From positions 75,636 through 139,635 of the forward strand of contig MHBK01000051.1 of assembly GCA_001804865.1 (NCBI GenBank): a DNA stretch of 64,000 bases, given 5' to 3'. Below are positions 37,820 through 64,000 of this stretch, in pieces (the first letter of the stretch is position 1; each line of letters opens with the position of its first letter). The position numbers and the translations under genes were made by a program. The stretch is from Lentisphaerae bacterium GWF2_57_35 (GTDB lineage Bacteria > Verrucomicrobiota > Kiritimatiellia > CAIQIC01 > GWF2-57-35). The notes under the pieces are model-generated. The model was not told the origin of the DNA and made no database searches. It saw nothing but the letters and a program-made list of their open reading frames with translations.

Positions 37820-37938
37820 TACTTGGAGTATGGGAATCGCAGATTAACGACTATTTTAAAAGCTCTTCCTCGCCATACTGCTCACGTAGAACCCCATCTC
37901 AAATTTTCGATCTAAAATTCTCCGCCTCCCCCTGCTCC

Positions 37939-39636: not shown

Positions 39637-39672
39637 ACTTAAAGAACCTTATACAGGCGAATACGGCCTGTG

Positions 39673-40605: not shown

Positions 40606-40829
40606 AAGATAAGAAAAGACTTGCGCGCACGAGAGGCTCTTAATGGAAGGGAGGGCCTTCTTGCCCGCCATCGCAGCCAGGAATGGCTGCGGTCCTTTAA
40701 CAAACTCCCAATGAGTCCAAGCCTGAGTCATAATTACAGTTGTTGTGACGCCAAAACCTTCTATTGCCAAGCCATCCGTTTGGGGGTATTTAATAACTAC
40801 AAGGGTCGCCAAGCTGAAAGGTGTGTTCC

Positions 40830-44741: not shown

Positions 44742-45017
44742 AGGAAGAGAAGAGGAGTCCAAAGACCAAGGGGGGCATTTCCGGCGCGTGTCGGCGGCTT
44801 TTGTCATCCAGCTCGTGCGGGACGGAGTGGCGCAACCGGCGCAGACCGCCAAAACGGCGCTGGCCAGAAGAAGTAAGGAACAGCGGATTGGTGACTTTTC
44901 ATTTTCTTGTGGGAGAAAAAAAGGACGGGGGTACATGAAGTAGTTGTTCTCTCCAAGTTGTTATCGACGTAGTGATTCTTTTGTGGCTGAATGGCCGCAG
45001 GTAAAGGGGGTGGGGAA

Positions 45018-46466
45018 ATGGTTCAGAAACTTAAGCGCCTTATGGGGCGTGTGGACGTGCGCTTGTTGGTTCTGTTGGCGATAGGGGTTCTGCTGGGAAC
45101 TTTAACGTGGGCTGCCGTGCAGTTGACGAAGGATCAGACAGACGACTTCGATGCCCGGACGCTCAACACTTGGCGAGATTTGATCACTGAATTCACGGCC
45201 ATCCGCGAAACTGCTTATCCCTTGGTTATACCGGCTCTGCTGCCCGACGAGTCCTCGATAGATTGGGCGGCCCTCCAAAATGACGATCCCGAATGGTATT
45301 GGGATTTTGATGCGGGGACCTATTATTTCGACCCGGGTTCTGAAATCTCCAAGCAGATCCCGCACGATACCGACTTGCTGGTCTATGAAGACATTGCTGA
45401 AGAAGAACTTCTTATCCTGAGCGTGCCGAAGACCTCGGACGCGCCTTACAAAGAAGAAATGGTTTTCCGCGCGATGGCTTGGCCCCAGCCGTCAAAATTC
45501 GAGCGCTACCAACGTTACCTCGACCGCGAACTCTGCAAGCGCCGGATCGCCTGGCACATCACGCTGAAATCCCGCCGCCTGGCCGAGAAGGAAGAAACGC
45601 AACCAAGAATGTCCGCGCTCCTTGAAGAACCGCAGGCATTCCGTCCTGCGAATTCTTCCTCTATGCAAATGATGTCGATGGAGTCTTTAACCGAATTGAA
45701 AATCACCGGCATCAAAAAGATGAGCAACACTTGCGCCATCGAAATATCCTACCCATCGTCGTACTCAGGAACTTCTTGGTCTGTTTTCTCCTATGATATG
45801 CCCGCGTGCGTGTATACCAACGAGAGCGGCGGGAGTGGTGGAAATCCACAGCCCCCCACCAACGAAGCGCCCTGTGAAGGCTGCTCGACCTGCTACACCG
45901 ACCCGGAAAGAAGCTTCGCCGGACTGGACCGCGTCTGGATGCTCTCCGAAAGCAACCTCGTCTTGACCGGCGAGACCAGCACCGTTTGGCTCGATCCCCG
46001 GCCCATGGGCCTGGACACCAACGGCGAGCCCTGCCACCGCACCTATGCGGTGGGAGCCAATGCCGCCGATGAGGACAACGATCAAATCAGTTCGGCTTTT
46101 GAAATTTTCGCTCTCAAAACCAATCCTGCCATTTGGGATTCAGACGGCGACCAGATGCCGGACGGATGGGAACTCGCGAATGGGTTCAATCCGCTAAATT
46201 TTGCGGACGGGGCCTTGGACGCCGATGAAGACGGCTTGGCCAACTTTGAAGAATTTGCCTTGAAAGCGAATCCCCATAACAGCGCCGACGCCGCCAAGCT
46301 GCTGACGGAATCCCGCGCCAGAATCCAATCTTATTGGGCGGCCGTGAAGAATACGCCCTTGGTTTTCACCCATACTCCCGGCTCGCCGGAAGATCTGCTG
46401 GATCTGAAGAATGCCCTGATGGATCTTTCAGGAACCTTTAGCCGGGAAGTGGAGGTGCAACCGTGA
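45018..46466 (+). CDS. Membrane-anchored hypothetical protein with a C-terminal dockerin/TSP3-like double calcium-loop module
   Basis: The RBS 'aaggggg' precedes the internal ATG. Transmembrane segment 'VRLLVLLAIGVLLGTLTWAAV'. 'DSDGDQMPDGWELANGFNPLNFADGALDADEDGLANFEEFALKANP'. Confidence 0.6.
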   Translation: MVQKLKRLMGRVDVRLLVLLAIGVLLGTLTWAAVQLTKDQTDDFDARTLNTWRDLITEFTAIRETAYPLVIPALLPDESSIDWAALQNDDPEWYWDFDAGTYYFDPGSEISKQIPHDTDLLVYEDIAEEELLILSVPKTSDAPYKEEMVFRAMAWPQPSKFERYQRYLDRELCKRRIAWHITLKSRRLAEKEETQPRMSALLEEPQAFRPANSSSMQMMSMESLTELKITGIKKMSNTCAIEISYPSSYSGTSWSVFSYDMPACVYTNESGGSGGNPQPPTNEAPCEGCSTCYTDPERSFAGLDRVWMLSESNLVLTGETSTVWLDPRPMGLDTNGEPCHRTYAVGANAADEDNDQISSAFEIFALKTNPAIWDSDGDQMPDGWELANGFNPLNFADGALDADEDGLANFEEFALKANPHNSADAAKLLTESRARIQSYWAAVKNTPLVFTHTPGSPEDLLDLKNALMDLSGTFSREVEVQP

Positions 46467-48691: not shown

Positions 48692-49164
48692 AAACTATGA
48701 ATATCATTGTTGCGGTTTTGGGTCTCACTTTCTTGGCCTATTTTGCCGTTGCTGATGACTGTGATGTCCAGCCTTTCGTGGATAACGTGAATCAGGAGTG
48801 GATTGCGCGCGACTATCCGGAAATACTTGCTCTAATTGATGCAAGACTATCAACTTGCACCAATGACATTTTAGCTTTGGGCATAAAAATTGAGTACTTT
48901 GGCTTGGCAGTCGTGAATCTCTCGCAGGCTCGGTCGGCAGCGAGCAACTTCCTCGCTGCTGTTCAGGCCGTAGCCCCAGAAGAAATTACCTCGCCAACGG
49001 CTCTGACACAATACGCAATATCTATTGCTAGCATCACAGTGCCGACAAACTATGTTGATGTTTCGCGTACATCGAACCAAGTGGAATACGTGCACAGGAC
49101 ATACTCTTCGGCGTTCCCTCGTATTGAGCGATACGTGGATTTTGTTGAACGCCTAAATCAATAA
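48688..49164 (+). CDS. Small secreted hypothetical protein (158 aa)
   Basis: Signal peptide 'MKTMNIIVAVLGLTFLAYFAVADD'. The ATGA overlaps the upstream gene. Shares the motif 'SITVPTNYVDVS' with the next gene. Confidence 0.55.
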   Translation: MKTMNIIVAVLGLTFLAYFAVADDCDVQPFVDNVNQEWIARDYPEILALIDARLSTCTNDILALGIKIEYFGLAVVNLSQARSAASNFLAAVQAVAPEEITSPTALTQYAISIASITVPTNYVDVSRTSNQVEYVHRTYSSAFPRIERYVDFVERLNQ

Positions 49165-49175
49165 TCTCTAACCCT

Positions 49176-50372
49176 ATGAAAACGAATAAGCGAAACTTAA
49201 TGATCGGGAATCAAATAGTGACCGCTTGCTGTGGGGTCCTGGCCTTCCTCTCAGTTCCTACGGCCGGTTTTTCTTCTATCCTTCAGGAGCGTCCCGGTCT
49301 CGGACGATGCGAGACGGCCGTTTCGAATATGCTTTGGACTCAGAAAGCCGTCACGGAGCGATGTTGGGCCGCCAATCGCACTCCGCCAATCAATGGTTGC
49401 CGTGACGTGGCGAGTTTAAAAAGCGAAGTGAAACTCGTGGCGCCTAAATTTGTGATTCCCAACGTCAATCCGCAAACATGGCATAATACCGTCTGCAACT
49501 TTCTTCCGGGTCCTCTGGGAAGCGGTTATCTGCCCGTGTATAAGTCGCAACGGCCCGCCAATACGGTTGCCGGATTCTTATCTGCTTTGAGCCTTCCAAC
49601 GAATTATTTGGATGTCTCAAGCTGGCGTGTGGCGGGTTTACAAGATACGAATTGGAATGACGTGATGCGATGTCTTACAAGCTTGCAGAAGACTGTGCAT
49701 GATTCTTCATGGGGTAATGGGGTGGAGAAGACGTATCTTCGATGGGAAGACCAGACCGGATGGAAGGTGGACAATACGACGAGAGCGGTACAAGGTGCAG
49801 GTCCTTATGTCTGTACGAGGACGAGCATCTTTGTTTTGGACGGCTACTGTAACGATTGGACTATTATAAGGGATGCCAACGGGCGCTATACACATGTCAC
49901 CTGTTATGCCTATCAACAAGTCGAAAACTTAACGGCTCAATTGAGCGGAGAGATCAGCCTTTTTGTGTGGATAGGGACAAATCCTTTTTATCATTTTGGC
50001 GATGGAGGCTACCTTCAAGGAAATAGAGCGCGGTTCAATAACTGGTGCTTGAGCAGTAAAGCCACAAACGCAACCAGCGTAGTTTCCTCGGCGATGCTTG
50101 GTTATCAAGATTCGCCGCCCGGCTCGTTTCCGCCTATCCCAACTCCGTCTTGCCGGGGCGATTTGTGTTTGGGGAACAATGCTTACGATCTGTACTCAAG
50201 TCTTGGATGCAACACATCGGAACCGCTCTTGGTCGATTGCATGCCCATTCCTTGCGTATGCGAGTCGCAACGTGATGCCTGGCGCCAATGGTATAACGCT
50301 TTGAACTCAGATTATTTTAATAGCGATGTGCGTCCTTATGCGGTGGTATCGTGGGATTTTACCTATAAATAA
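49176..50372 (+). CDS. Cysteine-rich secreted hypothetical protein (398 aa, ~17 Cys)
   Basis: N-terminal hydrophobic segment 'IVTACCGVLAFLSVPTAG'. Many spaced Cys. Motif 'LSLPTNYLDVS' shared with the 158-aa protein. Confidence 0.55.
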   Translation: MKTNKRNLMIGNQIVTACCGVLAFLSVPTAGFSSILQERPGLGRCETAVSNMLWTQKAVTERCWAANRTPPINGCRDVASLKSEVKLVAPKFVIPNVNPQTWHNTVCNFLPGPLGSGYLPVYKSQRPANTVAGFLSALSLPTNYLDVSSWRVAGLQDTNWNDVMRCLTSLQKTVHDSSWGNGVEKTYLRWEDQTGWKVDNTTRAVQGAGPYVCTRTSIFVLDGYCNDWTIIRDANGRYTHVTCYAYQQVENLTAQLSGEISLFVWIGTNPFYHFGDGGYLQGNRARFNNWCLSSKATNATSVVSSAMLGYQDSPPGSFPPIPTPSCRGDLCLGNNAYDLYSSLGCNTSEPLLVDCMPIPCVCESQRDAWRQWYNALNSDYFNSDVRPYAVVSWDFTYK

Positions 50373-50463: not shown

Positions 50464-52854
50464 TCATTCATCCAAATATCTGAACTGCCGGACAAACATT
50501 TCGTGAATGTCATCACCATTGGGGAATGGATCCCGCCAAACCAGAGCCACGGCCCGACGTTCTGCGGAAATAACATCAAGGTCAGCGTCCCAATCACCAA
50601 TCGGCTCATTATCCTTGATAGCCTGAGCCACTACGACTACGGTGAAAAGGTTCTCCGTAGGATTGAAGGCCCGATACGTATTGCGTACCAAGGCATCGCG
50701 CTGATTGTTGTTTAAACTCTGAGCGCCGCCAGACATGGCCCCACCGACTTGCATGACGGAGACCCCCGCCCAACTGGCGGGACTGTCGAAACTGTCCAGC
50801 CCTTCGCGCCCCTCGTGCGACCCCGTTACGATTTGATCAATTAAAAAGTCGAGCGGCTCTGAGGCGCCATTCAAGACGTTCGTGTCGTCTGGCACAGGAG
50901 CTTCTGCGATACTCGCATTCTGAAAAATACTCCTTAATACGTTCGAATTGAGCGTACCCGGATGCACCAGGCCATTAGTCCAGAAACCGTTAACAATTCC
51001 TTGAGGCGCCAAGACTTTTGCCATAATGTTAGTCTGTTGATTGCCACAAAACCTATTAAGAAGCTCGATGCCTGCCGGCTCAAAAAGATTGATGGTCTTC
51101 CAAGGCTGGCCGATGCTGATAAAGCCAAAATCCGCTGGCGATTCTAAGTTTGCATCACGAACGTACAAAGAATATCCTTCGTCATCTCCGCCCGAAGCAG
51201 CAACTGAAGGATTTATCAAACCTGGCGACACAGGCGACGCAGCTGTCCACGCTGTGACTTCGTAGTTCATGCGAGGATCATTAACCTCCAGTCCCTTCTC
51301 AGCCAGAGAAACCGTGCCGTTCGCAGCAGCAGCAGTAAAGGAAAAAGGCAAAAAGACCAGCGCAGAAACGGAATCAGCTGTATCAGCGTTTCGTATAAGC
51401 TCTAACAAATTAACACGAACAAGCAATCGAAGACTATCATTTGCCGAGATCGGCAAGCCATTAGCTGTATATGTATAATCCCATTTCTGAGGTTTTCCAT
51501 CACTATAATCTTCGGTAAACATAATATCCTCAGATGGTGATATTAGCCCAACATTGGCTATTGTTCCTTGGGTCATATTCTGAAACGTAAAGGAAATCTC
51601 ACCTGACCCTAGAGGTCCAATTCCCAATCGGGGATTATTGGGCTTGAATCGATAGCCACCAAGTGCTGGCTTTCCAGGAAAGGGATACCAAGTTTCGATT
51701 GTCAGATTGACAACTAAGTTTGCCGTAAGCCCATCACTAGCCGTCGTCAAAGTGCCTTTGTAAATGATTTCATTAATCATCGGCACGGCCTCGGTGGAGA
51801 AAGAGTTTACATTAATGGGTATTCGATTTGTATCTCGAAAATCCATCAGACTGTCGGCCATCATATCCGCCACCGAAGCATCCATACCCCAGAAGTCAGG
51901 ACTGCTAAATATTTTCTTCGCCTGCGCTGCCGTCCATTTGTTAACATCGGGATTCACATCTTCCCATCCAAAAGCCTGCCAGCTTCCCGATCCCCAATCA
52001 AACCACCCCCGATAATAATTAAGGCTATAGGGCATCAAGTTGGAGAGCTTATTTGTATCCAGGGCAATCAAATCGGGGTTTTGCCAATTAGGACCATTCC
52101 CTTCCCCATCGTTGAAAGTAATTAACTCAGGGAAAGAGTCAAACCCATGATACCAGTTCCGATTTTGTATGAAGTTCACCAGAGCCACGGCTTCCGGCAA
52201 AGAACTCATGTCTACATCGCGAACGTTTTGCCTCTCGCTCGAAGGATTAAAGAGACCGCCCGCGTTGGGCATGGAGATCAGATTAGCATCCATGGCCCCG
52301 GAGCAATCCAGCACGACATAACCATACCGCCCGAGGATTCGTCTAGGGGATTCAGGATCTACCACATAAACCCACTGAGCGGGAAGGTTAAAGGGAGGAA
52401 GGCCATTTGTCAGAAGAACCCTGGCATTCAGTTGGGGCATCGTGGGGGGGAAATACTTCTTGGGAATCCAGTTAACCACTTCCCCTTCCAGCAACTTGAG
52501 GTTTCCCAAAGGGACCGCCTGGTTGGGAACCGAACCCACATGCCGCGACATAAGAACCGACTCGGTCAGGGAAGGAATAATCAAATTGCTATCCCATAAT
52601 GCATGGTCGTAATCGTTCATGGCGGCGTTCAACGCAGAACGGGCCAATTGACGACAACGGCTGAGTTCCAGAGCGGAATCCGCCACCAGTCGTTCCGTGC
52701 GCGTCAGCGTCAGCAAAGCCACAGCCATCATAGTTAAAATGCTGAGAAACCCCAATACCACCACTAAGGCAATGCCGTCGCGCCTGTTGATGTTGCTCCA
52801 CAACTGAATCGTCATAAGAATTCCTAGTGCCAATAATGAGCCGGATGGCTCCAT
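50464..52854 (-). CDS. gspK: GspK-like minor pseudopilin (unusually large, 796 aa)
   Basis: GspK-type N-terminus 'RRDGIALVVVLGFLSILTMMAVALLTL', which lacks the conserved Glu5. It is the last gene after the G-H-I-J-like series. The start may instead be the internal Met at 52815. Confidence 0.45.
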   Translation of the reverse strand: MEPSGSLLALGILMTIQLWSNINRRDGIALVVVLGFLSILTMMAVALLTLTRTERLVADSALELSRCRQLARSALNAAMNDYDHALWDSNLIIPSLTESVLMSRHVGSVPNQAVPLGNLKLLEGEVVNWIPKKYFPPTMPQLNARVLLTNGLPPFNLPAQWVYVVDPESPRRILGRYGYVVLDCSGAMDANLISMPNAGGLFNPSSERQNVRDVDMSSLPEAVALVNFIQNRNWYHGFDSFPELITFNDGEGNGPNWQNPDLIALDTNKLSNLMPYSLNYYRGWFDWGSGSWQAFGWEDVNPDVNKWTAAQAKKIFSSPDFWGMDASVADMMADSLMDFRDTNRIPINVNSFSTEAVPMINEIIYKGTLTTASDGLTANLVVNLTIETWYPFPGKPALGGYRFKPNNPRLGIGPLGSGEISFTFQNMTQGTIANVGLISPSEDIMFTEDYSDGKPQKWDYTYTANGLPISANDSLRLLVRVNLLELIRNADTADSVSALVFLPFSFTAAAANGTVSLAEKGLEVNDPRMNYEVTAWTAASPVSPGLINPSVAASGGDDEGYSLYVRDANLESPADFGFISIGQPWKTINLFEPAGIELLNRFCGNQQTNIMAKVLAPQGIVNGFWTNGLVHPGTLNSNVLRSIFQNASIAEAPVPDDTNVLNGASEPLDFLIDQIVTGSHEGREGLDSFDSPASWAGVSVMQVGGAMSGGAQSLNNNQRDALVRNTYRAFNPTENLFTVVVVAQAIKDNEPIGDWDADLDVISAERRAVALVWRDPFPNGDDIHEMFVRQFRYLDE

Positions 52855-53729
52855 TGCCCCGGCGTCATGATCGGGAAAATACGAGTCATTAGTACATTTG
52901 AATCGCGGATCATCAGTGAACGCCCTTTTCGCCAGACATCATCCTGGGAGCTCCCAACGTATAATAGATTCGCGCCGCCCTGACTGGCCGCTTCCGTGGA
53001 CGTAACTTGCAGATAAATGTCAATAGCTGCAGGATGCATGTCCGCATCATAAAGACCGGGGTATGTCTTGCTGCTTGAATAGGAACTGATCCCCCCTGAT
53101 TCCTCCTGCAACAAGACACCTTTCTGCGTATGCAGATACACGTCGAACCGGACAATATTATCGATCAGGACTTCGGGATTCCCACTCGCCACAGACAACG
53201 TCAGCCACCAATCTTTGTACAGGAGAGGATTATTCGCCGACGGCTGCAAGGGATCTTTAGAATTCTTATCCATCACATCGAAATTCCATGAAGAGCGCCG
53301 AAGTCGAAAGCGCTTGGATGCCACTAAATTATTCGTTGCTTGATATTCATTAACATCATAACACACAAGCTGATAAGCCCGGCCATCATCCTGATCACCG
53401 CCCGTCGTAACAAACCAGACCTCGTCGAACCCAAACCCGTTAGGATTTGCTCCCCACGACCCGGTTGTCTTGTCCACCGAATCCGCCTCGTGATAGAAAG
53501 CCAGACGTTCATTAATCACAGCACATTCAAGTTCGTGGCGGATGAGATCCAAAGCCGATTCAGCAGCGCCATTTCGCATGACCGTGGTCGTCCCTTTTTT
53601 AAACGCGTTCGTGGCTTCCGTAAAAACACGGGTTAGGGCCAGCATCAAAATGACCAGCACAACCATGGAGGCCAACACCTCAATCAGGGTAAAAGCATCC
53701 GTTTTTCGTGTCGTCCATGAACTTCGCAT
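52824..53729 (-). CDS. Prepilin-type minor pseudopilin in the GspJ position
   Basis: 'MRSSWTTRKTDAFTLIEVLASMVVLVILMLALT' is a class III signal / N-methylation motif. 301 aa. Called GspJ-like from its position before the GspK-like gene. Confidence 0.5.
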   Translation of the reverse strand: MRSSWTTRKTDAFTLIEVLASMVVLVILMLALTRVFTEATNAFKKGTTTVMRNGAAESALDLIRHELECAVINERLAFYHEADSVDKTTGSWGANPNGFGFDEVWFVTTGGDQDDGRAYQLVCYDVNEYQATNNLVASKRFRLRRSSWNFDVMDKNSKDPLQPSANNPLLYKDWWLTLSVASGNPEVLIDNIVRFDVYLHTQKGVLLQEESGGISSYSSSKTYPGLYDADMHPAAIDIYLQVTSTEAASQGGANLLYVGSSQDDVWRKGRSLMIRDSNVLMTRIFPIMTPGQWSHPAHYWH

Positions 53730-53733
53730 AAAA

Positions 53734-54288
53734 CTACCTCAGTGGGAGATATTCCCTGTAAAAGACCTTGCCGGGCGTGCCAGGGGTCTGTCCAGATGGG
53801 TACTGTCCGGGCCAAACCTGCAGACGGGCATATTTAAGTCCAGGATAAGCGTTCACCTCCGCGATACTAAACTTGTAAGTGAAATATGCGGCTTTGATAT
53901 TCCCATCTAGCCAAACGTCACCGGCATAGAAATTAGGGATCCAGTAATACGGATTCTCTACCTCGATCACACCGCTGGGAACGATAATCGGTTGCAGGTT
54001 TGTGTTCATGGAATGTGATTTCATCAACTGAAAGGAGCCGCTTGTCTCAAAGTCATCCCACAGTTCATTCGTATTGGCCGCTTCAAAATCAAGGCTGCTG
54101 AAAACATAATCGGCAAAGGCGGCAACTTCCGTGTCGTCCACCGCTGCCCGGGTGGCATTCAAGCCTTCGGGGAAAAGGCCGAAAACAGCCAACAAGCCGA
54201 TGGCGACAACCAGGAGAGCCAGACTTACTTCGACCAATGAGTATCCGGCATCCTTTCGAATAGAGTCTATTGTGGCATGCATATTCAA
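53734..54288 (-). CDS. Prepilin-type minor pseudopilin in the GspI position
   Basis: 'KDAGYSLVEVSLALLVVAIGLLAVFGLFPEG'. 184 aa. Confidence 0.5.
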   Translation of the reverse strand: MNMHATIDSIRKDAGYSLVEVSLALLVVAIGLLAVFGLFPEGLNATRAAVDDTEVAAFADYVFSSLDFEAANTNELWDDFETSGSFQLMKSHSMNTNLQPIIVPSGVIEVENPYYWIPNFYAGDVWLDGNIKAAYFTYKFSIAEVNAYPGLKYARLQVWPGQYPSGQTPGTPGKVFYREYLPLR

Positions 54289-54971
54289 AAGTTCATATTT
54301 CCTATGTCTATTTCCACCTGCCCGGTCTTCCCCCTGACACGTATCCGGTTCGTGATGCCCGGCACGGACAACCGTTCCTCCAAGTTGTTGCCAGCCGCAT
54401 TGGGCTCATAAAACTTGGAAGTCGTCAGAAAAACACTGACGGGCACATCCCCCCAAGATGCGCCTCCATACTTATAACCATGCCCATTGGGTTTGAAAAG
54501 GATGGCTGCCATGTCGCGGCGTGCATCGCTTTCTGCCGGGAAAGGCAAGGGGAAGCTTGTCCCAAAGACCTGACCAGTCAATGAACTGTTAGTCAAAATA
54601 TAAACCCCGGAGGGAAGATACTTCCATGAAGACAGATACACAAAATTAGTCACTGTTTTGGTTTCGTTGGTTAGAGCCATGACCACATAACCCTGAAGGC
54701 ATTTATTGAGATTTTCAGAGCTATAAGTTCCATCCGAAATGGAGGGAAAGGCAACAAAGACCCATTGACGTTGAGTGACTGCATGCTGCCGAGCCAGACG
54801 AAGAGTTGTGGCCAATTCGGTGGAAGCTCCATTGATATCCTTTTTCCCGAACGTTTCGAACACCGGCATGGCGACGACGAACAGCAGGCTGATGATGGCA
54901 ATCACCACCAGCAGCTCGATGAGCGTAAAGGAACTTCTGTCTTTGCGTGTTAGATCCATATTCATTACCAA
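54285..54971 (-). CDS. Prepilin-type minor pseudopilin in the GspH position
   Basis: 'RSSFTLIELLVVIAIISLLFVVAMPVF...ELATTLRLARQHAV'. 228 aa. Confidence 0.5.
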   Translation of the reverse strand: MVMNMDLTRKDRSSFTLIELLVVIAIISLLFVVAMPVFETFGKKDINGASTELATTLRLARQHAVTQRQWVFVAFPSISDGTYSSENLNKCLQGYVVMALTNETKTVTNFVYLSSWKYLPSGVYILTNSSLTGQVFGTSFPLPFPAESDARRDMAAILFKPNGHGYKYGGASWGDVPVSVFLTTSKFYEPNAAGNNLEERLSVPGITNRIRVRGKTGQVEIDIGNMNF

Positions 54972-55480
54972 CTCGTCAAATTATCGTTGGTGGTCGCATC
55001 CTGCCCATCCGGCCCGGAGGACCAAGCAATGACGGGAGCCAGCACCGCGTCGATTCCCCCGCCGGGAGGGACAATTCGTCCGTCGCGGGTCGCATCGAAT
55101 CTCACCTTGTAGACATTGCCCCACGGATCGACAAAATCGTTGGCGGAGTTTAAAGCGGATTCGTCCGGCTCAAAAAATACGATTCTTTTAGGATTCCGGG
55201 GGTCGGAGGTCTTGAAATAAGCCCGCAACATGAGCACAACCTCGCCGTTCATAGCGTAATCCAATTCGTTTTGAACAGGCCAAATCCCGTATTCATTGAA
55301 GTACTTCATCCACACCGAGGCCAGCAGCTTGGCGTCGGCCTGAGCCTGAGCTTGCTCCCCTTTTTTGATCATGGTGTTGATGGCCGGCATGAGAAGCGCA
55401 GCCAAGATGGCCAAGATGCCAATGACAACCAGCAATTCGATCAAGGTGAATCCATTTTTCGTTTCAGGTTTTTTTTTCAT
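54965..55480 (-). CDS. gspG: GspG-like major pseudopilin, paralog 4
   Basis: 'NGFTLIELLVVIGILAILAALLMPAINTMIKKGEQAQAQADAKLLASVWMKYFNEYGIWP' matches the T2SS GspG pattern (F-T-L-I-E-[LIVM], 'K...A..D...L..A...Y..D.G.YP'). Confidence 0.55.
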   Translation of the reverse strand: MKKKPETKNGFTLIELLVVIGILAILAALLMPAINTMIKKGEQAQAQADAKLLASVWMKYFNEYGIWPVQNELDYAMNGEVVLMLRAYFKTSDPRNPKRIVFFEPDESALNSANDFVDPWGNVYKVRFDATRDGRIVPPGGGIDAVLAPVIAWSSGPDGQDATTNDNLTSW

Positions 55481-56124
55481 GGGGGTGTAAAGGTCGTTAA
55501 GGCCCGGCTTATATCATAGCTAGCTTTGTTGTTGCTTCCCGCCGAGTTTCCGCCCGTGGGCGGACCATAGGACACGACGCCTACTTTGTGGCCAATTATT
55601 TCGACTATATTCCAAACCTGCAGGGGCGTCTGAAGTCGAGAAAACAAAATGACCGTGTCGGCGTCGGTATCCATGATAATTTGATAAGGATTGCCCCAAG
55701 GGTCGAGAAAATAGTTGTTGGCCGGGGTATAAGAGTCGCCGTTCATATCCACGCCCACCAACGATTCCTCGGGGATTTGCAGGTAGACCTTACGATTGGG
55801 ATTATTCGTCGTATCGCGGGCGGTCAGAATATTCATCACAATGCTCTGATCGTCCGGAGTGGAATTACCAGGCAACTGCTTCATGCCGTAGTCGGAATCC
55901 TGACTGCCATTTCGGCCCGGGGCGGGCATGAACCCATAGTCCTTGTAATAAGACAAAATGGCGGTCTTTATATTGTTCATCTCCGTCTTGGCGCGGGTGA
56001 TGTCCGCGCGCTTCATGGCGGCATTGATCGCGGGAAACAACAGCGCGGCCAGCACGGCAATAATGCTGATGACCACCAGCAATTCGATTAGCGTAAAACC
56101 CCTTCGATTTGTGTTTAAGCGCAC
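55477..56124 (-). CDS. gspG: GspG-like major pseudopilin, paralog 3
   Basis: 'RGFTLIELLVVISIIAVLAALLFPAINAAMKRADITRAKTEMNNIKTAILSYYKDYGFMPAP'. Confidence 0.55.
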   Translation of the reverse strand: MRLNTNRRGFTLIELLVVISIIAVLAALLFPAINAAMKRADITRAKTEMNNIKTAILSYYKDYGFMPAPGRNGSQDSDYGMKQLPGNSTPDDQSIVMNILTARDTTNNPNRKVYLQIPEESLVGVDMNGDSYTPANNYFLDPWGNPYQIIMDTDADTVILFSRLQTPLQVWNIVEIIGHKVGVVSYGPPTGGNSAGSNNKASYDISRALTTFTPP

Positions 56125-56128
56125 GATT

Positions 56129-56803
56129 TCACCATGATTTAATAAACGATTTCGCCTTGCCCGGTTCGGATCCGAAGCTCATGACGCCAATTTTTAGGCC
56201 AGGGAAGGTCCCGTCGCCACCCGGTGACGCGGCATTAATGGCCGTACGCACTTCCGCATATGGGATCAAATCGAAAGCTCCCCGGTCGATCCCCTCATCC
56301 CGGCTGGTATCCATCACGATGTAATATGGATTTTCCCACGGGTCGAGATAGTAGTTATCCGCTTCGGTATAAGAAGCCGAATCCCCCGTCAAAGAAGCCT
56401 TGCCGACAAGGCTTTCCTTCGAAATATCGAGATAAAGCTGCTGGCCCTTGTTCTGGCTGTGATCCGGATTAAACGTGCTGTGCGGCATGGCCCTCAAGAC
56501 ATACATGAGAGAACACTGCTTGTCAGCCAAATTTTGCCCGCCAAACAGGGCATCTGCGCGGCCGTTTTGATTGTACGTCGGCATTCGATTATGCTTTTGA
56601 TAATAATTGCGGATGGCCGTTTCGATGTCCTTCATCTGCGCCATGGCTTTATTCTTGTCCGCCCGTTGAAACGCCGCGTTCATGGCAGGGAGGATAATCG
56701 CCGCCAGAATGGCAATAATGCTTATAACAACGAGTAGCTCAACCAATGTAAAAGCGTGCTTGCTTGGGATTCTTCTCATCAACATCATCTCCGCTCCCTC
56801 CAA
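56129..56803 (-). CDS. gspG: GspG-like major pseudopilin, paralog 2
   Basis: 'HAFTLVELLVVISIIAILAAIILPAMNAAFQRADKNKAMAQMKDIETAIRNYYQKHNRMP'. Confidence 0.55.
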   Translation of the reverse strand: MEGAEMMLMRRIPSKHAFTLVELLVVISIIAILAAIILPAMNAAFQRADKNKAMAQMKDIETAIRNYYQKHNRMPTYNQNGRADALFGGQNLADKQCSLMYVLRAMPHSTFNPDHSQNKGQQLYLDISKESLVGKASLTGDSASYTEADNYYLDPWENPYYIVMDTSRDEGIDRGAFDLIPYAEVRTAINAASPGGDGTFPGLKIGVMSFGSEPGKAKSFIKSW

Positions 56804-56867
56804 GACACGAACTTACCCTCCTAAAGTTTAAAAGTCCAGCGGCCTTTCCACGAGCCGTCCGCTAAAG

Positions 56868-57368
56868 CTATTGAGCTGTCCAGTTATTCAAATTTGTCTG
56901 CCCATCAGGGCCCAAAGACCACAAATCGTAGCCAAATTTGGAGTCGTTGTGATCGGCATAAGGACTAGCAGAACGATGAAGATATCGATACGTCGCCCCC
57001 CAAGGATCGATGGCTCCATAGTTGATGTTGGGATCGGTCCAGCCCTTTAACACCAAGAAGGGTTTCTTACCTAAGGCTTGGGGCTGGCACCACAATTGAG
57101 CGACCCAGTTGGTGGTATTTGCAGGAAGAAAATTGATTGGATATCGTCCATACTCGACACGATAATCTTCCAAGGCATTCTTAATCTTCTCCATATCGGA
57201 CAGAGCCTTGCCCTCATCTGCCTTCTTGGTAGCAAGCCCCGCCACCCCCAAGATCATCGAAGCCAAAACCGCGATGATGGCAACCACCACGAGCACTTCA
57301 ATGAGGGTAAAAGCCTGGGAAAACACCGAATGGTCTGAGGTCGGAGCAGAGATATGTATACGCTTCAT
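56868..57368 (-). CDS. gspG: GspG-like major pseudopilin, paralog 1. The start is taken at the internal Met after a GGAG RBS; the ORF is open up to 57422.
   Basis: 'QAFTLIEVLVVVAIIAVLASMILGVAGLATKKADEGKALSDMEKIKNALEDYRVEYGRYPIN'. Confidence 0.55.
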   Translation of the reverse strand: MKRIHISAPTSDHSVFSQAFTLIEVLVVVAIIAVLASMILGVAGLATKKADEGKALSDMEKIKNALEDYRVEYGRYPINFLPANTTNWVAQLWCQPQALGKKPFLVLKGWTDPNINYGAIDPWGATYRYLHRSASPYADHNDSKFGYDLWSLGPDGQTNLNNWTAQ

Positions 57369-57383
57369 GTCGCGGTCTCCAAT

Positions 57384-57433
57384 TTTTCCAATGATTGGAA
57401 AAAATCCTACACGATTTTCCAATGATTGGAAAA
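57384..57433. promoter_or_regulatory. Two perfect palindromes 'TTTT(T)CCAATGATTGGAAAA(A)' with centres ~31 bp apart, between the giant gene stop and the first gspG-like start
   Basis: Palindrome 1 is at ~57384-57404 and palindrome 2 at ~57414-57433. Both are confirmed by mirror-image translations on both strands ('FFPIIGK' / 'FPMIGK', 'FSNDWK'). Confidence 0.5.
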
Positions 57434-57453
57434 CGTTTAAAGGGTTTTTATAG

Positions 57454-60400
57454 CTATTGGTTAACCGAATAACTAAAACAATGGTCCAAATGGGCGCTTG
57501 GATATCGCTGAGTCACGCTGGCGCCATCTTTGGAATACTCCGACTGAAGGAAGTACTCAACCTTGGTCTGAGGTGGCTGCGCGGGAATGGGCGTAGCGGT
57601 GTAGTACACGTCAAACGCATTCGTCATACTTAGCAATGTAAAGACACCGTTCGTCCCTGCGCGATACCAGGTTCTTAGCGCAAGATTCGTTAGGTCGGCA
57701 CGAGGGAGGATTTTGGCATGAATATACACCGTGTCATTGGAATATGCAGACTGAGGAACTTGTCCCACATTCAGAACGTTTATGCGACCTGGGGCCGTTT
57801 CTGCCAGAATCGAGATGGCTGAAGCGGTCCCCAATAACTGTCCAGCGTAGTTGCCTAGCCATGCTCCATCGGTTCGCTGAGCTGAAAGAAGATTGGTCGC
57901 GCAAGCGTATCGCCAGTTCTGAGCGCCAATCATCTCAATGGGTGGATCGAACATGTCACAGGCTGCGCCGAAAGCGTGCATCCCATAAAGGTCAGAAGCT
58001 TCTGGAATCGAGTTGGCATTCAAGTAATTCAGGGCCAGCTGGACTTCCGTGTTAGTAAAAGTGCGGTTCAGGAAAGCCAATTGAGCTAAGCCATAGGAAG
58101 TGCGCGCAGAAGTGCCGTAAGACGGCCCATCATAGCCAAAGTATCCGTTGTCGTTTTGCGAATAGGCAATCCAAGCCGCCAATTCGGCTCTCAACCCGTT
58201 AGGGATGGAAATCCCATCCCAGGTTTGTGCATGATACAATCCGACCGCTGACCACCATGACGCAGAGTTGTCCGAAGACTCATGATTCGCGGAATACCGC
58301 CATCCGCCACGCCCGTAGCCATCGTCCGTTTGCGCCCAACCGCAATAATCGGCCATATCTTGCATGATATCGCGATATGATCTTCCCGCAATATTGCCGG
58401 GTGCATTCTCGGGAGCAACATTGGTCGGCCATGCAGACTCGATAAATGCAGTCATTATCGAACCAAGTTGATACATCTCGTTATTGCTATTAGCCAGCCC
58501 TATACCTAAACCATTCGAATTTGCATCAGGATTGTAATTACATTTGTCCGTGGAAATGGGTTTGGCTTGAAGGCAGTCGATTAACAAATACCGCAAGCCT
58601 CCTGAAATCGTCTCCTCGTATATGTCGTCTTCACAAGATGGCCGATGGCCAAGGGACGCAAAGGCGGTGATCGCCAGGCTATTGGCGCAGGCAATGTAAG
58701 AAGTTCCATAGTTATCGTGCTGCCAATAATATCCGTGAGCATGAAAAAACGCATTTGTATATAACCAGATCAACCCATTTTCCGCGGCGAGTAATGCCAG
58801 CGCATCAAAGTTGTTTGTTTCACGACACGCTAGTTGAAAATCGAGCGTTACAGGAACTCCCCGGCTATCGCTTAAATAAGCGTTTACATCGTATATAGAC
58901 GATGTCGAATAAACATGTTCGGTCCCAATATAACGAGATCCTGTTGTTTGCGTTACCGTAATTGTCGCACTGTGGTGGCCATCGCCTAAATCGAACCAAC
59001 AAGACAACGGCCATTGATTGGTTTGAATTTCAGTTGCTGCCATCCAAATACGAGTCGTCACGCCAACAACCGAAACTCCCCACGTATTACTTTGGTCATA
59101 ACTCGGCATATGCATGAAACGATTGAATGCGCATTCATCTGCACCGATATCTACCACGGCTTCTAATATCCGAGCATCGCCATCCAAGTCCGTTAGCATT
59201 TCCATTCCAGACGTATTGCTCCCCGTATTTAGACAGGGGGATGCATGTGATAAGTGCCAGCCGTCCGGTGCGAAAAGAGGATTGGAATTCAAATTGCCAG
59301 GTCCTGGAGGTATTAAAGAATCTTGCAGACAGGAATAGGCAAAGGACCAGTTTGTCCCCCATACATTGTTGGAGACGAAACCCCACACAATGCAATTTGT
59401 CATAGTCACGTATGACCCAGGCACTCCCGTATTATCGAGAAAAAGTGCATGCCCACAATTATCAGCGCTGTTATTGACCAAGGTGCAGTTCATGAATCGA
59501 ATCGGATATCCAGGGTGTCCACTCGAATAGAAAGCGCCGCCTTTGTGGGCCACGTTGCTATGAAATAAACTCGTATTTACATCTACCTGCGAGCTTGCCG
59601 CGATGGCGCCTCCGGTGGAGGCTGTATTTTCAATAAAGCGGCAGTGGGATAGCGAAAACACGCCCAAACCCATCAAAGCTCCGCCTTGATTAACTGCGTG
59701 GTTGTCCTCGAATCGACATGCCGCAGCCCTGAATAATCCGTTACTTTGCACAACGACTGCACCGCCATTCAACGCTGTATTTTGATTCAAACGACTGTTT
59801 TCCAGATTAAGATTTGCGGACACTTTCAATGCTCCGCCTATCGCGGACGAATTATTGGTGAACCCGCAGTCCGCGAGGTACGATTCACATTCAGCGTCAA
59901 TAGCGCCTCCAACACTCGTCGCATTGTTGTCCTCAAACGAACAATTTGCAGCCATAAGAATTCCATTACTGCGCGCCGAAATAGCGCCACCATCAATCGC
60001 GCTATTACCCGAAAACAAGCAATTGGATAAGTAAAGATCGGAGCACCCCGCCAGCGCTCCGCCAATGGCCGCCAGATTACTGGAAAAGCAACATTGTACA
60101 AAGTCAGATTCGCCATCCGAACTGATCGCTCCACCTTTATCGAATGCATTATTGTTAGCGAACAAAGAACCCCAAATAGAGGCCATTCCGTCTCTATGAA
60201 TAACAACCGCACCACCGACAAGCCCGGTATTGCACAGAAAAATACTATTGGTTAGATCCAGATAACTGCCAACAAATACAGCGCCGCCTGTGGCTGCGGA
60301 ATTACCATTGAAGCTGCACTGCGCCAGTCGCGCATCTCCTCCCAAATACAAAGCACCGCCCATTCCTCGAGCTTGATTCCTTGTGAACAAATTATCTTCA

Positions 60401-63400
60401 GCAAATAGCGAATAGGAATCTGCTGCGGTATATAAGCCTCCCCCCAGACGCGCCAGACAACCTGTTATAATGCAATTTGCTATTCGCACATCTTCTTCAC
60501 ACCAAGCGCCGCCACCGTCTTGAGAGAGGGTTCCTCCGCTATTATCAGTGTGACCATTATAAAGAGTGAACCCATCAACAGTGCATTTTGCGGCTGCATA
60601 TAAACAACGAGTGGATAATTCGGGGCCACTGCCAGATATTGTCGTAACAGATGGACCATTGACACTTTGCAGGTGAACCGAATCCTTCAGAAGAGCAACC
60701 CGACACCCAATTCCGTCCCCAACAATCCGCATTCCTGAATCATAAACCCCATTGGAAACCAATACAAAGGAACCGACCCATGCCGCATCAATGGCATCCT
60801 GAATATTGGTTGCAGCGGTTGCCCATGTGATGAATGGGACAGAGGGGCTGGAATTATATTTATCGACATAATAGACACCTAATTCGTCCGCGCCGATATC
60901 AACGATTTGATCTTGTATTCTTGGAGCACCATCTAAATCGGCTTCTACCGCGAATCTCGATAGGTTGGTCCCCGCATTTCGACACGGAGAGTCCGGCATT
61001 AAATGCCAGCCGTCGCGTTGAAAATTCGGATCGGTATTGATATTACCTACACCTGGAGCGGGCGATGGGCCTTGAATACAAGAGTACGCCGCGCCCCACG
61101 TTCCGCCTTCAATAACGCGATTATTTGCGGCTCGCAATATACAATTAGTCAAACAAGCCGTGCCCCCTAAATAGATCAGCGGGGCTAAAGATCCGGCGTC
61201 GTTGTCAACCAAGGTGCAATTGACCAAATTCAGGTCACCCATCGAGCGAATTGCACTGCCCCTACATCCACCGCCATTATCCATCAACAGACTGTTCTCA
61301 ACGACTGTGCGCGAGGTCGAATATATTCCTTCCGCACCGGGAGAACAACGGTTGCTGGCAATAACACTGCGGTCGATATATATAGGCAAGGTAACGTATA
61401 GCGCTCCCCCTTCTCTTGCGTAATTGTCCTCAAAAACACATCTCGACATTAGGCAAGTAATCCCCGACAAATAAATAGCACCACCTGCACTGCCACCAAT
61501 GTTTCCGGTGAACAAGCAATTTTCCAATACAAATGATCCCGATGTGCCGCACACCGCACCACCATAGCCCGTTGTAATGGAATTACTGATAAATGCGCAT
61601 GACTGAACAGTCAGCATGGCTCCATCAGCATTGATCGCTCCGCCAAAATAGAATATATGTCCATTTCGCATGGTCAAATGCTTAATGACGGCACTAGTTG
61701 TCCCATTTTGAATCAGAAACGCCCGGCCAGAAGATTCACAGTCGATGACGGTATTGTCTCGTTGCCCTTGCAGGCCGGTAACGGCCAGGTTTTTTCCGTT
61801 GAAATCCACGTCACGATTTAAAGATCCCGTATAGGCGCCAGGCATAATAATAATATGGTGGCCATTGGACGCCTGCCCAAGCGCGTAAGAAATGGTAGCG
61901 TAAGGGTTGGTATACGAGCCGCGGCCTATGGCATCCACGCCGTTGGTGGCGACGTAGTGACCGCCGACGGGCTGAGAGTCAAGCGAGTTGGGATTGGTTT
62001 GGGCGTTATACTCTTCCAGGTTCGACCAGCCGTCCTGGTCGGGGTCCAGGTCCGCATCGGCGGGGTTGTTGGGATTCAGGCTATGCCAGCGTTCCCAGTC
62101 GTCGCTCATGCCGTCGCCGTCGGCGTCCACAAAACCGGCCGTTGGATCGGCGCCGGCGTAATATTCGTAGAGATTGATGAGGTGGTCGCCGTCTTCGTCG
62201 TTTGTCTCCACACGCGACAAATTAGAAAACCATTTCATTTCCCACCAATCCCCCATTTCATCGTCATCGGTGTCCGGATTGGTCAGGACGATATCGGCGT
62301 TGTCGATTGGGCCGGCAATGGAAAGGGCGGTGTTCGTATAGTAGCCGCGGGCTTCGTACACTCCGCAGGTTCTGTTGCCGTCGGAGTCGCGCCAGGTCCA
62401 AATCCAGCAGGGTCCTTCCGGAAAAGCGGTCAGCCGATAAGGGCCGGGTTGCGGCAAGACTTGTGCAAAGTTTGTGCTGCAACTGTTCGAGGCGGCGACG
62501 GCCACAACATAAATCAAGCCGGTCTGGCCTCCACTATAAGGCGCATAACTTATCGTGCCGCCGATGCTGGGCGGGTCCTGGAGCGCAAAATCGATGGCGG
62601 TCCTGCGGTTGCTGACGGCAAAGGCCGTTTGGCTGTACCGCCCCACCCGTTCGGGCCAGGCCATGTTGAAATTTGTGTCGGAATCGACGAAGGCGCGAAT
62701 CCAGTAATTCGAGGCGGGCATTCCAACGATGGAATAATTGACGGGGAAGGTCACAACCGCCATTTCGCCGGAAAGGCCGCTGCTTTGTATCCAGGGAATG
62801 ACGCAACGATACGTCGTATCCCAACTATTCGATGCCGTGACCGCGACGATCCAAATATCCCCATTGACCGAACCCGTGTAGCTCAGTTGTCCCCAAATCG
62901 AGGGGACATCCTGCAGGGCCATGTTGACGCCGCCGATATTGGACGTCACGTAAGTTGAGGCCGCACTGTAAAGAGCCCAAGGCTCCCAGCCGTCCAGGTT
63001 GTGATTGTTGTTCGCATCGCGAAACGCTTTGAACCACCAAGCCCGAGGGATGGCGACGCGATTGTTGCTATAGGCGTCCGGCGTGGGCATCGAGACGGAG
63101 CCCCCCAGCGACCAGCTCTCGGAGGCGGCCACCGCCAGCATATAGACCGAACCGGTTTCAGCGCCGCTATACGAAATTGCACCCGACACGAGAGCCGGGT
63201 GAGACGATGCATTGGTCGGATCGGAATGGTACAGAAATCGTTCGCGCATATCGGCATACCCATCTCCATCCGAATCCAGATCGGCATTGCCCGCCGCATA
63301 GATGCGTGGCGTTACCGGGGGTATGGCCACTTCGGCATCGGTCCATTCGATCCAGTTGGTTGAAGAGGAGACCGGGGTCGTGGCCGCAAGATCCCACCAG

Positions 63401-64000
63401 AATTCAAGCAGGTCATCCGTCCGGAAAACATCGAGCCGATTCGTGAAGCAGTTGACCGGGTAGGTTGCGCCACTATAAGGATACACAATGGTCAGACGGA
63501 CAAGATTGGTCATTCTTTCGATAGCCGTGATGCAGATGTTCGTGACCGGCGGGCCGGCGTAGCGCATAAGCACGGCGCCGCCTTTCGGTGTGGAGGAAGA
63601 AAGGGCAGCATTCTGCGCAATAAGGGCGGTTGTGTACAGGTACGGCTCGGCATATTCGCACGGAACCAACGTAAGTTCCACCTGCACCCGCGAACTGTCA
63701 TATAGCCGGGACATATAGTCCACATAACCGGGGCTGTATTTTCCCGAGAACAGATCCTGAAAGATCGTTTTGAGATACCATTGCGGCTCACGGGTTGCCG
63801 ATTGAAGTGCAAATATCTCTTTGCCTTTTTCGTTAAAGAACCGAGTGGTCCGCGACTTTTGATCTTCGACCATAGTCAGTTTGTAGGCGGGAACACTGTT
63901 CTCGTAGCGTAAGACGAGATTTTTGAATTCGTGCGGAAATTTATGCCAATTAAACGGCAAGACTTGGCCGCTGGGTTGGCGCAGGATGAAATCCTCGGCA
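57454..64000 (-). CDS. Giant secreted protein (>2,168 aa, probably 5'-partial). Its parts are described in the evidence field.
   Basis: The ORF is open to the window end. The first listed codon is TTG and the visible N-terminus has no signal peptide, so the gene likely continues upstream. The N-terminus carries three tandem copies of a ~110-aa unknown module ('ISYSGAETGSVYMLAVAASESWS', 'LSYTGSVNGDIWIVAVTASNSWD', 'ISYAPYSGGQTGLIYVVAVAASNSCS'). Two dockerin/TSP3-like double calcium-loop modules follow: 'DTDDDEMGDWWE...DEDGDHLINLYEY' and 'DADGDGMSDDWE...DPDQDGWSNLEEY'. There are ~18 Pmp-type repeats pairing 'GGAI/GGAV/GGAL' with 'CxFxxN', e.g. 'GGAINADG...CAFISNS', 'GGAIYLSG...CVFEDN', 'GGAISARSNG...CSFEDN'. 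The C-terminus is a W/Y/G-rich region 'DDGYGRGGWRYSANHESSDNSASWWSAVGLY...QNDNGYFGYDGPSYGTSARTSYGLAQLAFL'. Confidence 0.8.
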   Translation of the reverse strand, partial: AEDFILRQPSGQVLPFNWHKFPHEFKNLVLRYENSVPAYKLTMVEDQKSRTTRFFNEKGKEIFALQSATREPQWYLKTIFQDLFSGKYSPGYVDYMSRLYDSSRVQVELTLVPCEYAEPYLYTTALIAQNAALSSSTPKGGAVLMRYAGPPVTNICITAIERMTNLVRLTIVYPYSGATYPVNCFTNRLDVFRTDDLLEFWWDLAATTPVSSSTNWIEWTDAEVAIPPVTPRIYAAGNADLDSDGDGYADMRERFLYHSDPTNASSHPALVSGAISYSGAETGSVYMLAVAASESWSLGGSVSMPTPDAYSNNRVAIPRAWWFKAFRDANNNHNLDGWEPWALYSAASTYVTSNIGGVNMALQDVPSIWGQLSYTGSVNGDIWIVAVTASNSWDTTYRCVIPWIQSSGLSGEMAVVTFPVNYSIVGMPASNYWIRAFVDSDTNFNMAWPERVGRYSQTAFAVSNRRTAIDFALQDPPSIGGTISYAPYSGGQTGLIYVVAVAASNSCSTNFAQVLPQPGPYRLTAFPEGPCWIWTWRDSDGNRTCGVYEARGYYTNTALSIAGPIDNADIVLTNPDTDDDEMGDWWEMKWFSNLSRVETNDEDGDHLINLYEYYAGADPTAGFVDADGDGMSDDWERWHSLNPNNPADADLDPDQDGWSNLEEYNAQTNPNSLDSQPVGGHYVATNGVDAIGRGSYTNPYATISYALGQASNGHHIIIMPGAYTGSLNRDVDFNGKNLAVTGLQGQRDNTVIDCESSGRAFLIQNGTTSAVIKHLTMRNGHIFYFGGAINADGAMLTVQSCAFISNSITTGYGGAVCGTSGSFVLENCLFTGNIGGSAGGAIYLSGITCLMSRCVFEDNYAREGGALYVTLPIYIDRSVIASNRCSPGAEGIYSTSRTVVENSLLMDNGGGCRGSAIRSMGDLNLVNCTLVDNDAGSLAPLIYLGGTACLTNCILRAANNRVIEGGTWGAAYSCIQGPSPAPGVGNINTDPNFQRDGWHLMPDSPCRNAGTNLSRFAVEADLDGAPRIQDQIVDIGADELGVYYVDKYNSSPSVPFITWATAATNIQDAIDAAWVGSFVLVSNGVYDSGMRIVGDGIGCRVALLKDSVHLQSVNGPSVTTISGSGPELSTRCLYAAAKCTVDGFTLYNGHTDNSGGTLSQDGGGAWCEEDVRIANCIITGCLARLGGGLYTAADSYSLFAEDNLFTRNQARGMGGALYLGGDARLAQCSFNGNSAATGGAVFVGSYLDLTNSIFLCNTGLVGGAVVIHRDGMASIWGSLFANNNAFDKGGAISSDGESDFVQCCFSSNLAAIGGALAGCSDLYLSNCLFSGNSAIDGGAISARSNGILMAANCSFEDNNATSVGGAIDAECESYLADCGFTNNSSAIGGALKVSANLNLENSRLNQNTALNGGAVVVQSNGLFRAAACRFEDNHAVNQGGALMGLGVFSLSHCRFIENTASTGGAIAASSQVDVNTSLFHSNVAHKGGAFYSSGHPGYPIRFMNCTLVNNSADNCGHALFLDNTGVPGSYVTMTNCIVWGFVSNNVWGTNWSFAYSCLQDSLIPPGPGNLNSNPLFAPDGWHLSHASPCLNTGSNTSGMEMLTDLDGDARILEAVVDIGADECAFNRFMHMPSYDQSNTWGVSVVGVTTRIWMAATEIQTNQWPLSCWFDLGDGHHSATITVTQTTGSRYIGTEHVYSTSSIYDVNAYLSDSRGVPVTLDFQLACRETNNFDALALLAAENGLIWLYTNAFFHAHGYYWQHDNYGTSYIACANSLAITAFASLGHRPSCEDDIYEETISGGLRYLLIDCLQAKPISTDKCNYNPDANSNGLGIGLANSNNEMYQLGSIMTAFIESAWPTNVAPENAPGNIAGRSYRDIMQDMADYCGWAQTDDGYGRGGWRYSANHESSDNSASWWSAVGLYHAQTWDGISIPNGLRAELAAWIAYSQNDNGYFGYDGPSYGTSARTSYGLAQLAFLNRTFTNTEVQLALNYLNANSIPEASDLYGMHAFGAACDMFDPPIEMIGAQNWRYACATNLLSAQRTDGAWLGNYAGQLLGTASAISILAETAPGRINVLNVGQVPQSAYSNDTVYIHAKILPRADLTNLALRTWYRAGTNGVFTLLSMTNAFDVYYTATPIPAQPPQTKVEYFLQSEYSKDGASVTQRYPSAHLDHCFSYSVNQ

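Follow-up and report, generated by a model that had tools for sequence, protein, structure and literature searches.

The 64-kb window analyzed here (the whole stretch of DNA, at its full length) carries on its minus strand, at positions 50464-57422, eight tightly packed genes for pilin-like proteins (p1-p8), located 3' of a giant open reading frame (ORF) that extends from 57454 to past 64000. This block is probably the module that encodes the filament (the pilins) in a type IV filament machine of the kind found in the Planctomycetes-Verrucomicrobia-Chlamydiae (PVC) group (Kiritimatiellia, Lentisphaerae, Verrucomicrobia). In its workings, the system resembles a type IV filament with T2SS-type pilins (T2SS, type II secretion system) and a platform of the type IVa pilus type, and the block itself, as a pilus gene cluster, is divergent and fairly ordinary for its lineage. 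The eight genes, in the order of transcription, are as follows.

p1: 56868-57422, minus strand; GspG-type pilin, 166 aa from its likely start codon, the ATG at 57368
p2: 56129-56803, minus strand; GspG-like pilin
p3: 55477-56124, minus strand; GspG-like pilin
p4: 54965-55480, minus strand; GspG-like pilin, with a 4-nt overlap with p3
p5: 54285-54971, minus strand; GspH/FimU-like minor pilin
p6: 53734-54288, minus strand; small minor pilin in the GspI/PilV position
p7: 52824-53729, minus strand; minor pilin in the GspJ/PilW position
p8: 50464-52854, minus strand; oversized GspK-like minor pilin, 796 aa (the public gene call starts at 52815 and gives 783 aa)

The initial annotation of this DNA had reported seven prepilin genes followed by a GspK-like gene, and all eight were recovered at the same coordinates on the minus strand. 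A class III signal peptide of the form [G/A/S]-[F/Y]-[T/S]-L-[I/V]-E, with glutamate at position +5 (Glu+5), is present in all seven of p1-p7, and a regular-expression scan of the window returned the prepilin motif exactly seven times, every one inside p1-p7. The Pfam family N_methyl matches each of these seven proteins (E values 1e-9 to 2e-4; p2, 1.7e-7; p3, 1.4e-9; p4, 2.2e-7), six of them above the gathering score, with p6 falling 0.2 bits short (21.0 versus 21.2 bits). In the public gene calls, p2 to p8 are separated by 4-nt overlaps or by gaps of 8 nt at most, and p2-p8 therefore form one operon.

The first four genes encode G-type subunits. The product of p1 passes the Pfam family T2SSG (40 bits, cut-off 21; E 4.4e-10), was aligned with GspG (PDB 5wda) over residues 38-177, i.e. 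helix and globular domain, and matches the NCBIfam model TIGR01710 (3.6e-16) at a score below the equivalog cut-off (59.4 versus 88.85). Marginal T2SSG passes were obtained for p2 and p3 (21.6 and 21.2 bits versus 21), for which GspG is also the best NCBIfam match (3.3e-13 and 2e-14, respectively). Pfam T2SSG does not detect p4, and its GspG identity is found in NCBIfam only, again as the best match (1.5e-9). All four proteins have the GspG-type motif DPWGNPY in common (p2, DPWENPY; p3, DPWGNPY; p4, DPWGNVY).

For the minor pilins the similarity is more graded. A narrow pass of the Pfam family GspH (22.4 bits versus 21) was obtained for p5, together with a match to the Verru_Chthon cassette D model (TIGR02596; 3.1e-14, residues 15-164) below its cut-off; the p5 profile matched pilins in the PDB on the N-terminal helix only. 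For p6 there are two matches that stay below cut-off, to PilV (TIGR02523; 9.7e-8) and to Verru_Chthon B (6.5e-6), limited to the N-terminal 39-73 residues, and p7 has a weak, likewise N-terminal best match to Verru_Chthon C (3.3e-10); the matches of p6 and p7 span just the N-terminal 39-75 residues. Against the PDB, the p6 family profile gave no significant or specific match, and the p7 profile gave weak, non-specific matches (best E 0.02), mostly to the N-terminal helix; a single-sequence AlphaFold model of p7 (predicted local distance difference test score, 37) was unusable. The reading of the block as G(x4)-H-I-J-K, which had been proposed initially, is thus firm for G and K and moderate for H, and for I and J it amounts to position plus weak N-terminal matches.

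The last gene, p8, encodes a structural GspK homologue: its N-terminus is GspK-like, and the protein combines a pilin fold and an alpha-domain insertion with the absence of Glu+5. No Pfam family matches it. Its length of 796 aa is indeed more than twice that of usual GspK proteins (about 280-330 aa), and its model shows an enlarged helical region as well as an extra beta-sandwich, located at about residues 359-524. Word-index searches for homologues (single sequence and profile) returned p8 itself only. An exhaustive HMMER search with p8 yielded 789 representative clusters at E<=1e-3, 425 of them at E<=1e-10, and most members are full-length proteins of 700-830 aa, so that the whole family is characterized by its large size. 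The initial proposal of an undescribed coupling in this lineage is not justified. The C-terminus of the p8 model consists of three strands (736-794), and a C-terminal motif is conserved family-wide. K proteins of the T2SS type provide their final beta-strand in cis, but in type IV pili the strand is donated to the K protein by PilY1/PilC (PMC13533445). Judged by its model, p8 appears to be of the cis type and to keep its own C-terminal strands, and would therefore need no PilY1-type partner.

At a distance of 10 kb from the pilin block, on the same strand, the window contains an operon (32693-40335) with the following genes.

39673-40335, minus strand: Amuc_1102-family pilus-like protein (NF042424, 63.5 bits versus a cut-off of 55)
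37939-39636, minus strand: PilM-like protein of the Amuc_1101 family (Pfam PilM_2, 4e-45; TIGR01175, 171.9 versus 133; NF045709, 551 versus 650, below cut-off)
36797-37819, minus strand: Amuc_1100-like protein (NF038287, 8e-29, 101 bits versus 180, below cut-off)
35754-36800, minus strand: Amuc_1099-family protein with a TSP3-like repeat (NF042425, 62.6 versus 50; TSP3_bac match)
32693-35668, minus strand: TPR-fused, Amuc_1098-like secretin (Pfam Secretin, 7e-37, plus TPR and STN; NF042912, 1.2e-161, 540 versus 750, below cut-off)

The best matches of these five proteins are the models of Amuc_1102, 1101, 1100, 1099 and 1098, in the same order as in the type IV pilus-like system of Akkermansia, although only two of the five (Amuc_1102 and Amuc_1099) reach their cut-offs. 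By these matches and by gene order, the operon is homologous to Amuc_1102-1098 of Akkermansia. Amuc_1098 has been described as a secretin of the outer membrane that carries TPR repeats and is conserved in Verrucomicrobia and Lentisphaera (PMC4960237). The window secretin has the same N-terminal TPR region; it scores below the cut-offs of GspD (TIGR02517, 154 bits, cut-off 351) and PilQ (TIGR02515, 137.8 bits, cut-off 284). The initial annotation had stated that no secretin, ATPase or platform genes lie near the block. This holds for the ATPase and the platform, since neither a GspE ATPase nor a GspF platform gene was found in the window or its flanks (examined as a scaffold of 84.6 kb, which comprises the window, about 9 kb before it and 11.7 kb after it); the PilM-secretin operon, however, belongs to the same kind of machine.

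Two genes close to the secretin operon encode a Wzy_C (O-antigen ligase-like) protein (18881-20125, minus strand) and a Dpy19-like membrane glycosyltransferase (29199-31223, minus strand). Pilin O-glycosylases belong to the Wzy_C group, and either protein could modify the pilins.

Gene order was compared across 49 K-centered loci that were obtained from a p8-family scan of species-representative genomes and carry the labels Kiritimatiellia, Verrucomicrobia or Lentisphaerae; ORFs were called in these loci (cited by L numbers), and blastp and tblastn served to compare them with the proteins of the window. In close relatives the block is retained, with a single G-like gene or several of them ahead of H-I-J-K. 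Directly 5' of the G genes, pilB and pilC are present in L005, L020 and L026, and pilT also in L020 and L026. The order in L026 is pilT-pilB-pilC-G-H-I-J-K, an LTD-protein gene on the opposite strand, and Amuc_1102-1101-1100-1099-1098, which matches the order in the window. The L023 locus has pilB-pilC 6.5 kb 3' of K, not 5'. Near the pilin clusters of L020 (19171-19980) and L023 (15525-16340), genes were also observed for proteins that we take, from their N-termini (MYLEFYGLKEFPFN...), to resemble AAA proteins of the ExeA/GspA/MshM type.

In Akkermansia (L036), pilC is followed by several G-like genes, an H-like, a PilV-like and a Verru_Chthon-C-like gene, a further G-like gene and then a large K-like gene, whose product has the same N-terminal region as p8. 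This comparable architecture indicates that the block is a normal pilin operon of the lineage. The Akkermansia cluster differs in that its K-like protein matches p8 over about 250 N-terminal residues only (E 4e-7), in that no Amuc_1098-1102 homologue is present in the 8 kb sequenced 3' of its K gene, and in that pilC adjoins its pilin genes, which is not the case in the window. The notion of a hybrid arrangement in which the pilins use the PilMNOPQ-like machinery, as raised in the initial annotation, can be kept in a moderated form: the operon is the Amuc_1102-1098 homologue and L026 repeats the window order, but the adjacency is not universal.

The taxonomic label of the source is unreliable, because the same DNA (aquifer metagenome scaffold_263) was deposited both as Lentisphaerae bacterium GWF2_57_35 and as a 'Verrucomicrobia bacterium' metagenome-assembled genome (MAG; DNKJ01000087), and because the closest relatives of the K protein are labeled Kiritimatiellia.

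As a PVC-type filament module, the block could function as follows. The products of p1-p4 would be the GspG-type fiber subunits, p5 (H/FimU-like) the adaptor, and p6, p7 and p8 would form a tip-initiation complex, in which p8, as a GspK homologue with a gained beta-sandwich and an enlarged alpha region, could dispense with a PilY1-type partner. A prepilin peptidase encoded elsewhere would cleave the prepilins, a PilB/PilC motor, also encoded elsewhere in the genome, would assemble the subunits, and assembly would pass through the neighboring PilM-type platform and the TPR-fused secretin. The fiber may act as a pilus or as a secretion piston, in adhesion and motility or in secretion. The data show what G and K are, how closely the operon is packed, the synteny, and the homology to the Amuc families; that the pilins feed into this secretin and that the tip complex forms in this way is inferred.

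The gene order is that of the T2SS pseudopilus GspG-H-I-J-K (e.g. GspI-J-K of enterotoxigenic Escherichia coli, 3CI0, and XcpVWX of Pseudomonas, 5VTM), with GspG-type major subunits that carry the DPWGNPY motif. The window differs from this system by four G paralogues, by the inserted beta-sandwich of its large K protein, by G, H, I and J sequence-model scores below the equivalog cut-offs, by a PilM-type platform, and by the lack of GspC, GspL and GspM; moreover, the relatives carry PilT. That the block is the pseudopilus of a classical T2SS, with GspC, D, E, F, L and M encoded elsewhere and unrelated to the PilM-secretin operon, would accord with the GspG-type pilins, with the GspK fold and cis terminal strand of the K protein, and with the machinery of the relatives, of which the platform matches GspF marginally best (390 versus 386 for PilC), with the scores of the ATPase for PilB (621) and GspE (618) nearly the same. 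This explanation is unlikely. Neither the window and its flanks nor the related loci gave any family match to GspC, GspL or GspM; the machinery adjacent to the cluster in the relatives is of the PilT (463 bits versus a cut-off of 319) and PilM type; and the window secretin, far below the GspD cut-off, fits best as Amuc_1098-like. The absence of GspC, GspL and GspM and the score of the secretin are the reasons for which the system is not regarded as a classical T2SS. A full T2SS operon abutting the block just beyond the window, which had been considered at the outset, is not found in the flanks, and a pilT-pilB-pilC set just outside the window was rejected, as the flanking scaffold is without these genes; the approximately 9 kb before the window start contain housekeeping genes.

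The type IVa pilus, with its minor-pilin operon FimU-PilV-PilW-PilX(-PilY1), PilMNOPQ and PilB/C/T, resembles the window system in other respects: the PilM-like protein passes TIGR01175, a PilT-family ATPase gene lies beside the cluster of the relatives, p6 has PilV as its best match, and the H-I-J-K order is equivalent to FimU-V-W-X. It differs in that no PilY1/PilC-type adhesin is found and the last strand appears to come from the K protein itself, as in the solution described for the T2SS type (PMC13533445), in that the major pilins are GspG-like rather than PilA-like, and in that the secretin does not reach the cut-off for PilQ.

Upstream of the pilin genes lies the gene of a very large protein.

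57454 to past 64000 (cut by the window end), minus strand: giant secreted beta-helix protein with Chlam_PMP, TSP3_bac and DUF1565 matches

The ORF does leave the window, as was noted initially (>2,168 aa); the full-length protein has 2256 aa and an N-terminus that by eye resembles a signal peptide. It had been proposed that the pseudopilus is a dedicated export or display device for this protein, co-transcribed and coupled with it. The giant gene and the pilin genes are co-oriented, and the gap of 31 bp that was given for them applies to the longest ORF of p1; with the public gene call of p1 (ATG at 57368), the spacer from the giant stop codon to the likely p1 start is 85 nt. Such close spacing, the apparent Sec signal peptide (as in T2SS cargo), and a C-terminal region of about 120 aa that is homologous to a domain of the LTD protein (below) and could be a shared recognition module are all compatible with an export device, and PulG-like pseudopilin genes are located inside polysaccharide-utilization clusters beside secreted enzymes in another verrucomicrobium (PMC13274419). 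The proposal is nevertheless improbable. None of the 49 loci has a full-length homologue of the giant protein, and no orthologue of its gene lies 5' of the pilin genes (tblastn), an outcome that the initial annotation had itself named as refuting the coupling; p1-like G genes are kept in the core cluster of L005 and L026, both of which are without the giant gene; and matches derived from the giant protein are confined to its approximately 100-aa C-terminal domain, inside LTD homologues. On this comparison, the giant gene is a lineage-specific neighbor and not a conserved partner; its position is that of pilT-pilB-pilC in some relatives.

The spacer also bears on the control of the pilin operon. 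Within 57385-57432, the 19-bp palindrome TTTTCCAATCATTGGAAAA is present in it twice, without mismatch and at a distance of 31 bp (57385-57401 and 57416-57432); the motif gives four strand-matches versus 0.22 expected and occurs nowhere else in the window. These are candidate operator or protein-binding sites, and two of them in the spacer suggest an own promoter/operator, i.e. that the pilin operon is controlled separately from the giant gene, which is a further point against co-transcription. No sigma-54 promoter was seen by eye in the spacer, and scans for sigma-70 promoters and terminators were at chance level, so that neither a simple terminator nor a sigma-70 promoter counts either way. 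Related TTCCAA-N3-TTGGAA palindromes are present in intergenic regions of L017 (10982-11060) and L024 (2750, 3817 and 7415); in related MAGs they are sometimes arranged in tandem with a spacing of about 32 bp and are not confined to pilin genes. They are possibly the sites of a lineage-wide regulator.

The genes between the Amuc-like operon and p8 are located on the opposite strand.

40821-44741, plus strand: secreted LTD/discoidin protein of 1306 aa, with Pfam LTD and F5_F8_type_C matches and an apparent signal peptide
44991-50372, plus strand: four genes for proteins of 491, 742, 158 and 398 aa, without function by Pfam, between the LTD gene and p8

The LTD protein is the conserved neighbor of K in the relatives: a homologue, convergent and just 3' of K, was found in 12 of the 14 close-clade loci with any downstream sequence (L006, L007, L010, L012, L013, L015, L016, L019, L020, L021, L026 and L029). 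The last 120 or so residues of the giant protein (57454-57820) share 34% identity with the LTD protein over its residues 912-1031 (43554-43913; E 4e-16), and this common domain is also found inside the LTD homologues of L016, L021 and L026. As a sequence similarity, it is the sole hint that links the large secreted proteins to the machine. That the domain acts as a recognition or docking module, by which very large cargo is secreted or displayed through the PVC filament machine, is doubtful; if true, the K gene and the LTD-protein gene would pair a machine with its cargo in a way that has not been described for type IV filaments. The four genes at 44991-50372 gave no Pfam matches and no homologues in the related loci, and are specific to the organism; the N-termini of their products resemble signal peptides or membrane anchors. 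TSP3-like calcium-binding repeats are common to the 491-aa protein, the giant protein and the Amuc_1099-like protein.

Several observations weigh against the assignment of the block to the filament machine. Pfam scans of the large window ORFs and the flanks detected no gene for PilB, PilC, PilT or a prepilin peptidase in the 84.6 kb, and the motor is therefore assumed; a metagenome scan for the pilB of this organism gave a best identity of 66%, in a sequence that is not assignable to the organism. The NCBIfam matches are mostly under the curated cut-offs, and the I and J assignments derive from position and weak N-terminal similarity. The adjacency of pilin block and Amuc-like operon is seen in the window and L026 only; it is not universal, because L006, L007, L020 and L029 have no secretin operon in at least 8 kb 3' of K. 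Finally, the pilin block, the giant gene and the intervening genes are about 8 GC points under the Amuc-like operon (0.57-0.59). The GC content is 0.48-0.53 over 40-62 kb (LTD operon, pilin block and most of the giant gene) and mostly 0.57-0.61 in the rest of the window, apart from two 2-kb bins near 4-8 kb (0.54-0.55). A separate origin of the pilin block is possible in view of this gap; the low GC content of 40-62 kb could also be a compositional bias of surface-protein genes.

The low GC content of the region would fit with the block being a horizontally acquired or spare pilin cassette, like a Verru_Chthon paralogue, silent or conditional and unused by the adjacent machine. The Verru_Chthon cassette A-D (TIGR02600, 02598, 02599 and 02596) comprises verrucomicrobial prepilin-like proteins, of which the A protein is large. 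Among the matches listed, the D model is the best for p5, the C model for p7 and the A model for p8, and the B model comes after PilV for p6. In addition, PVC genomes carry numerous pseudopilin paralogues (PMC13274419), and a further divergent prepilin/DUF1559 gene is located 5' of the giant gene. However, none of the Verru_Chthon scores comes near its cut-off (A, 35.8 versus 332.3; B, 26.4 versus 51.4; C, 39.7 versus 256.5; D, 53.5 versus 70), three of the four matches involve the N-terminal helix only, and the A model has 1296 positions versus the 796 aa of p8; a literature search for 'Verru_Chthon cassette' by name found nothing. The reading frames of the block are, moreover, intact and tightly coupled, and L026 shows the same order beside its Amuc-like operon. 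A spare cassette is thus very unlikely, and the filament module of the PVC-type machine is retained as the probable identity of the block. The divergent prepilin-type gene itself (L054, 10001-10870; weak N_methyl plus DUF1559, H-X9-DG type) lies about 1.5 kb past position 64000, upstream of the giant gene and on the opposite strand, with housekeeping genes beyond it.

The claim of giant-protein export does not survive the comparison with relatives, and the practical value of the analysis therefore is a better annotation and the lead given by the conserved LTD protein and the domain that it has in common with the giant protein. For the PVC lineage, the combination of T2SS-type pilins with a PilM/PilT-type machine bears on the divergence of T2SS and type IVa pili, and biomedical interest attaches to the form that the machine takes in Akkermansia (the Amuc_1100 cluster), the filament subunits of which have been little discussed. 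A widespread family of GspK-like proteins of 700-830 aa (789 representative clusters, no Pfam model, unannotated) is now linked to the pilin operon of a PVC pilus-like machine.

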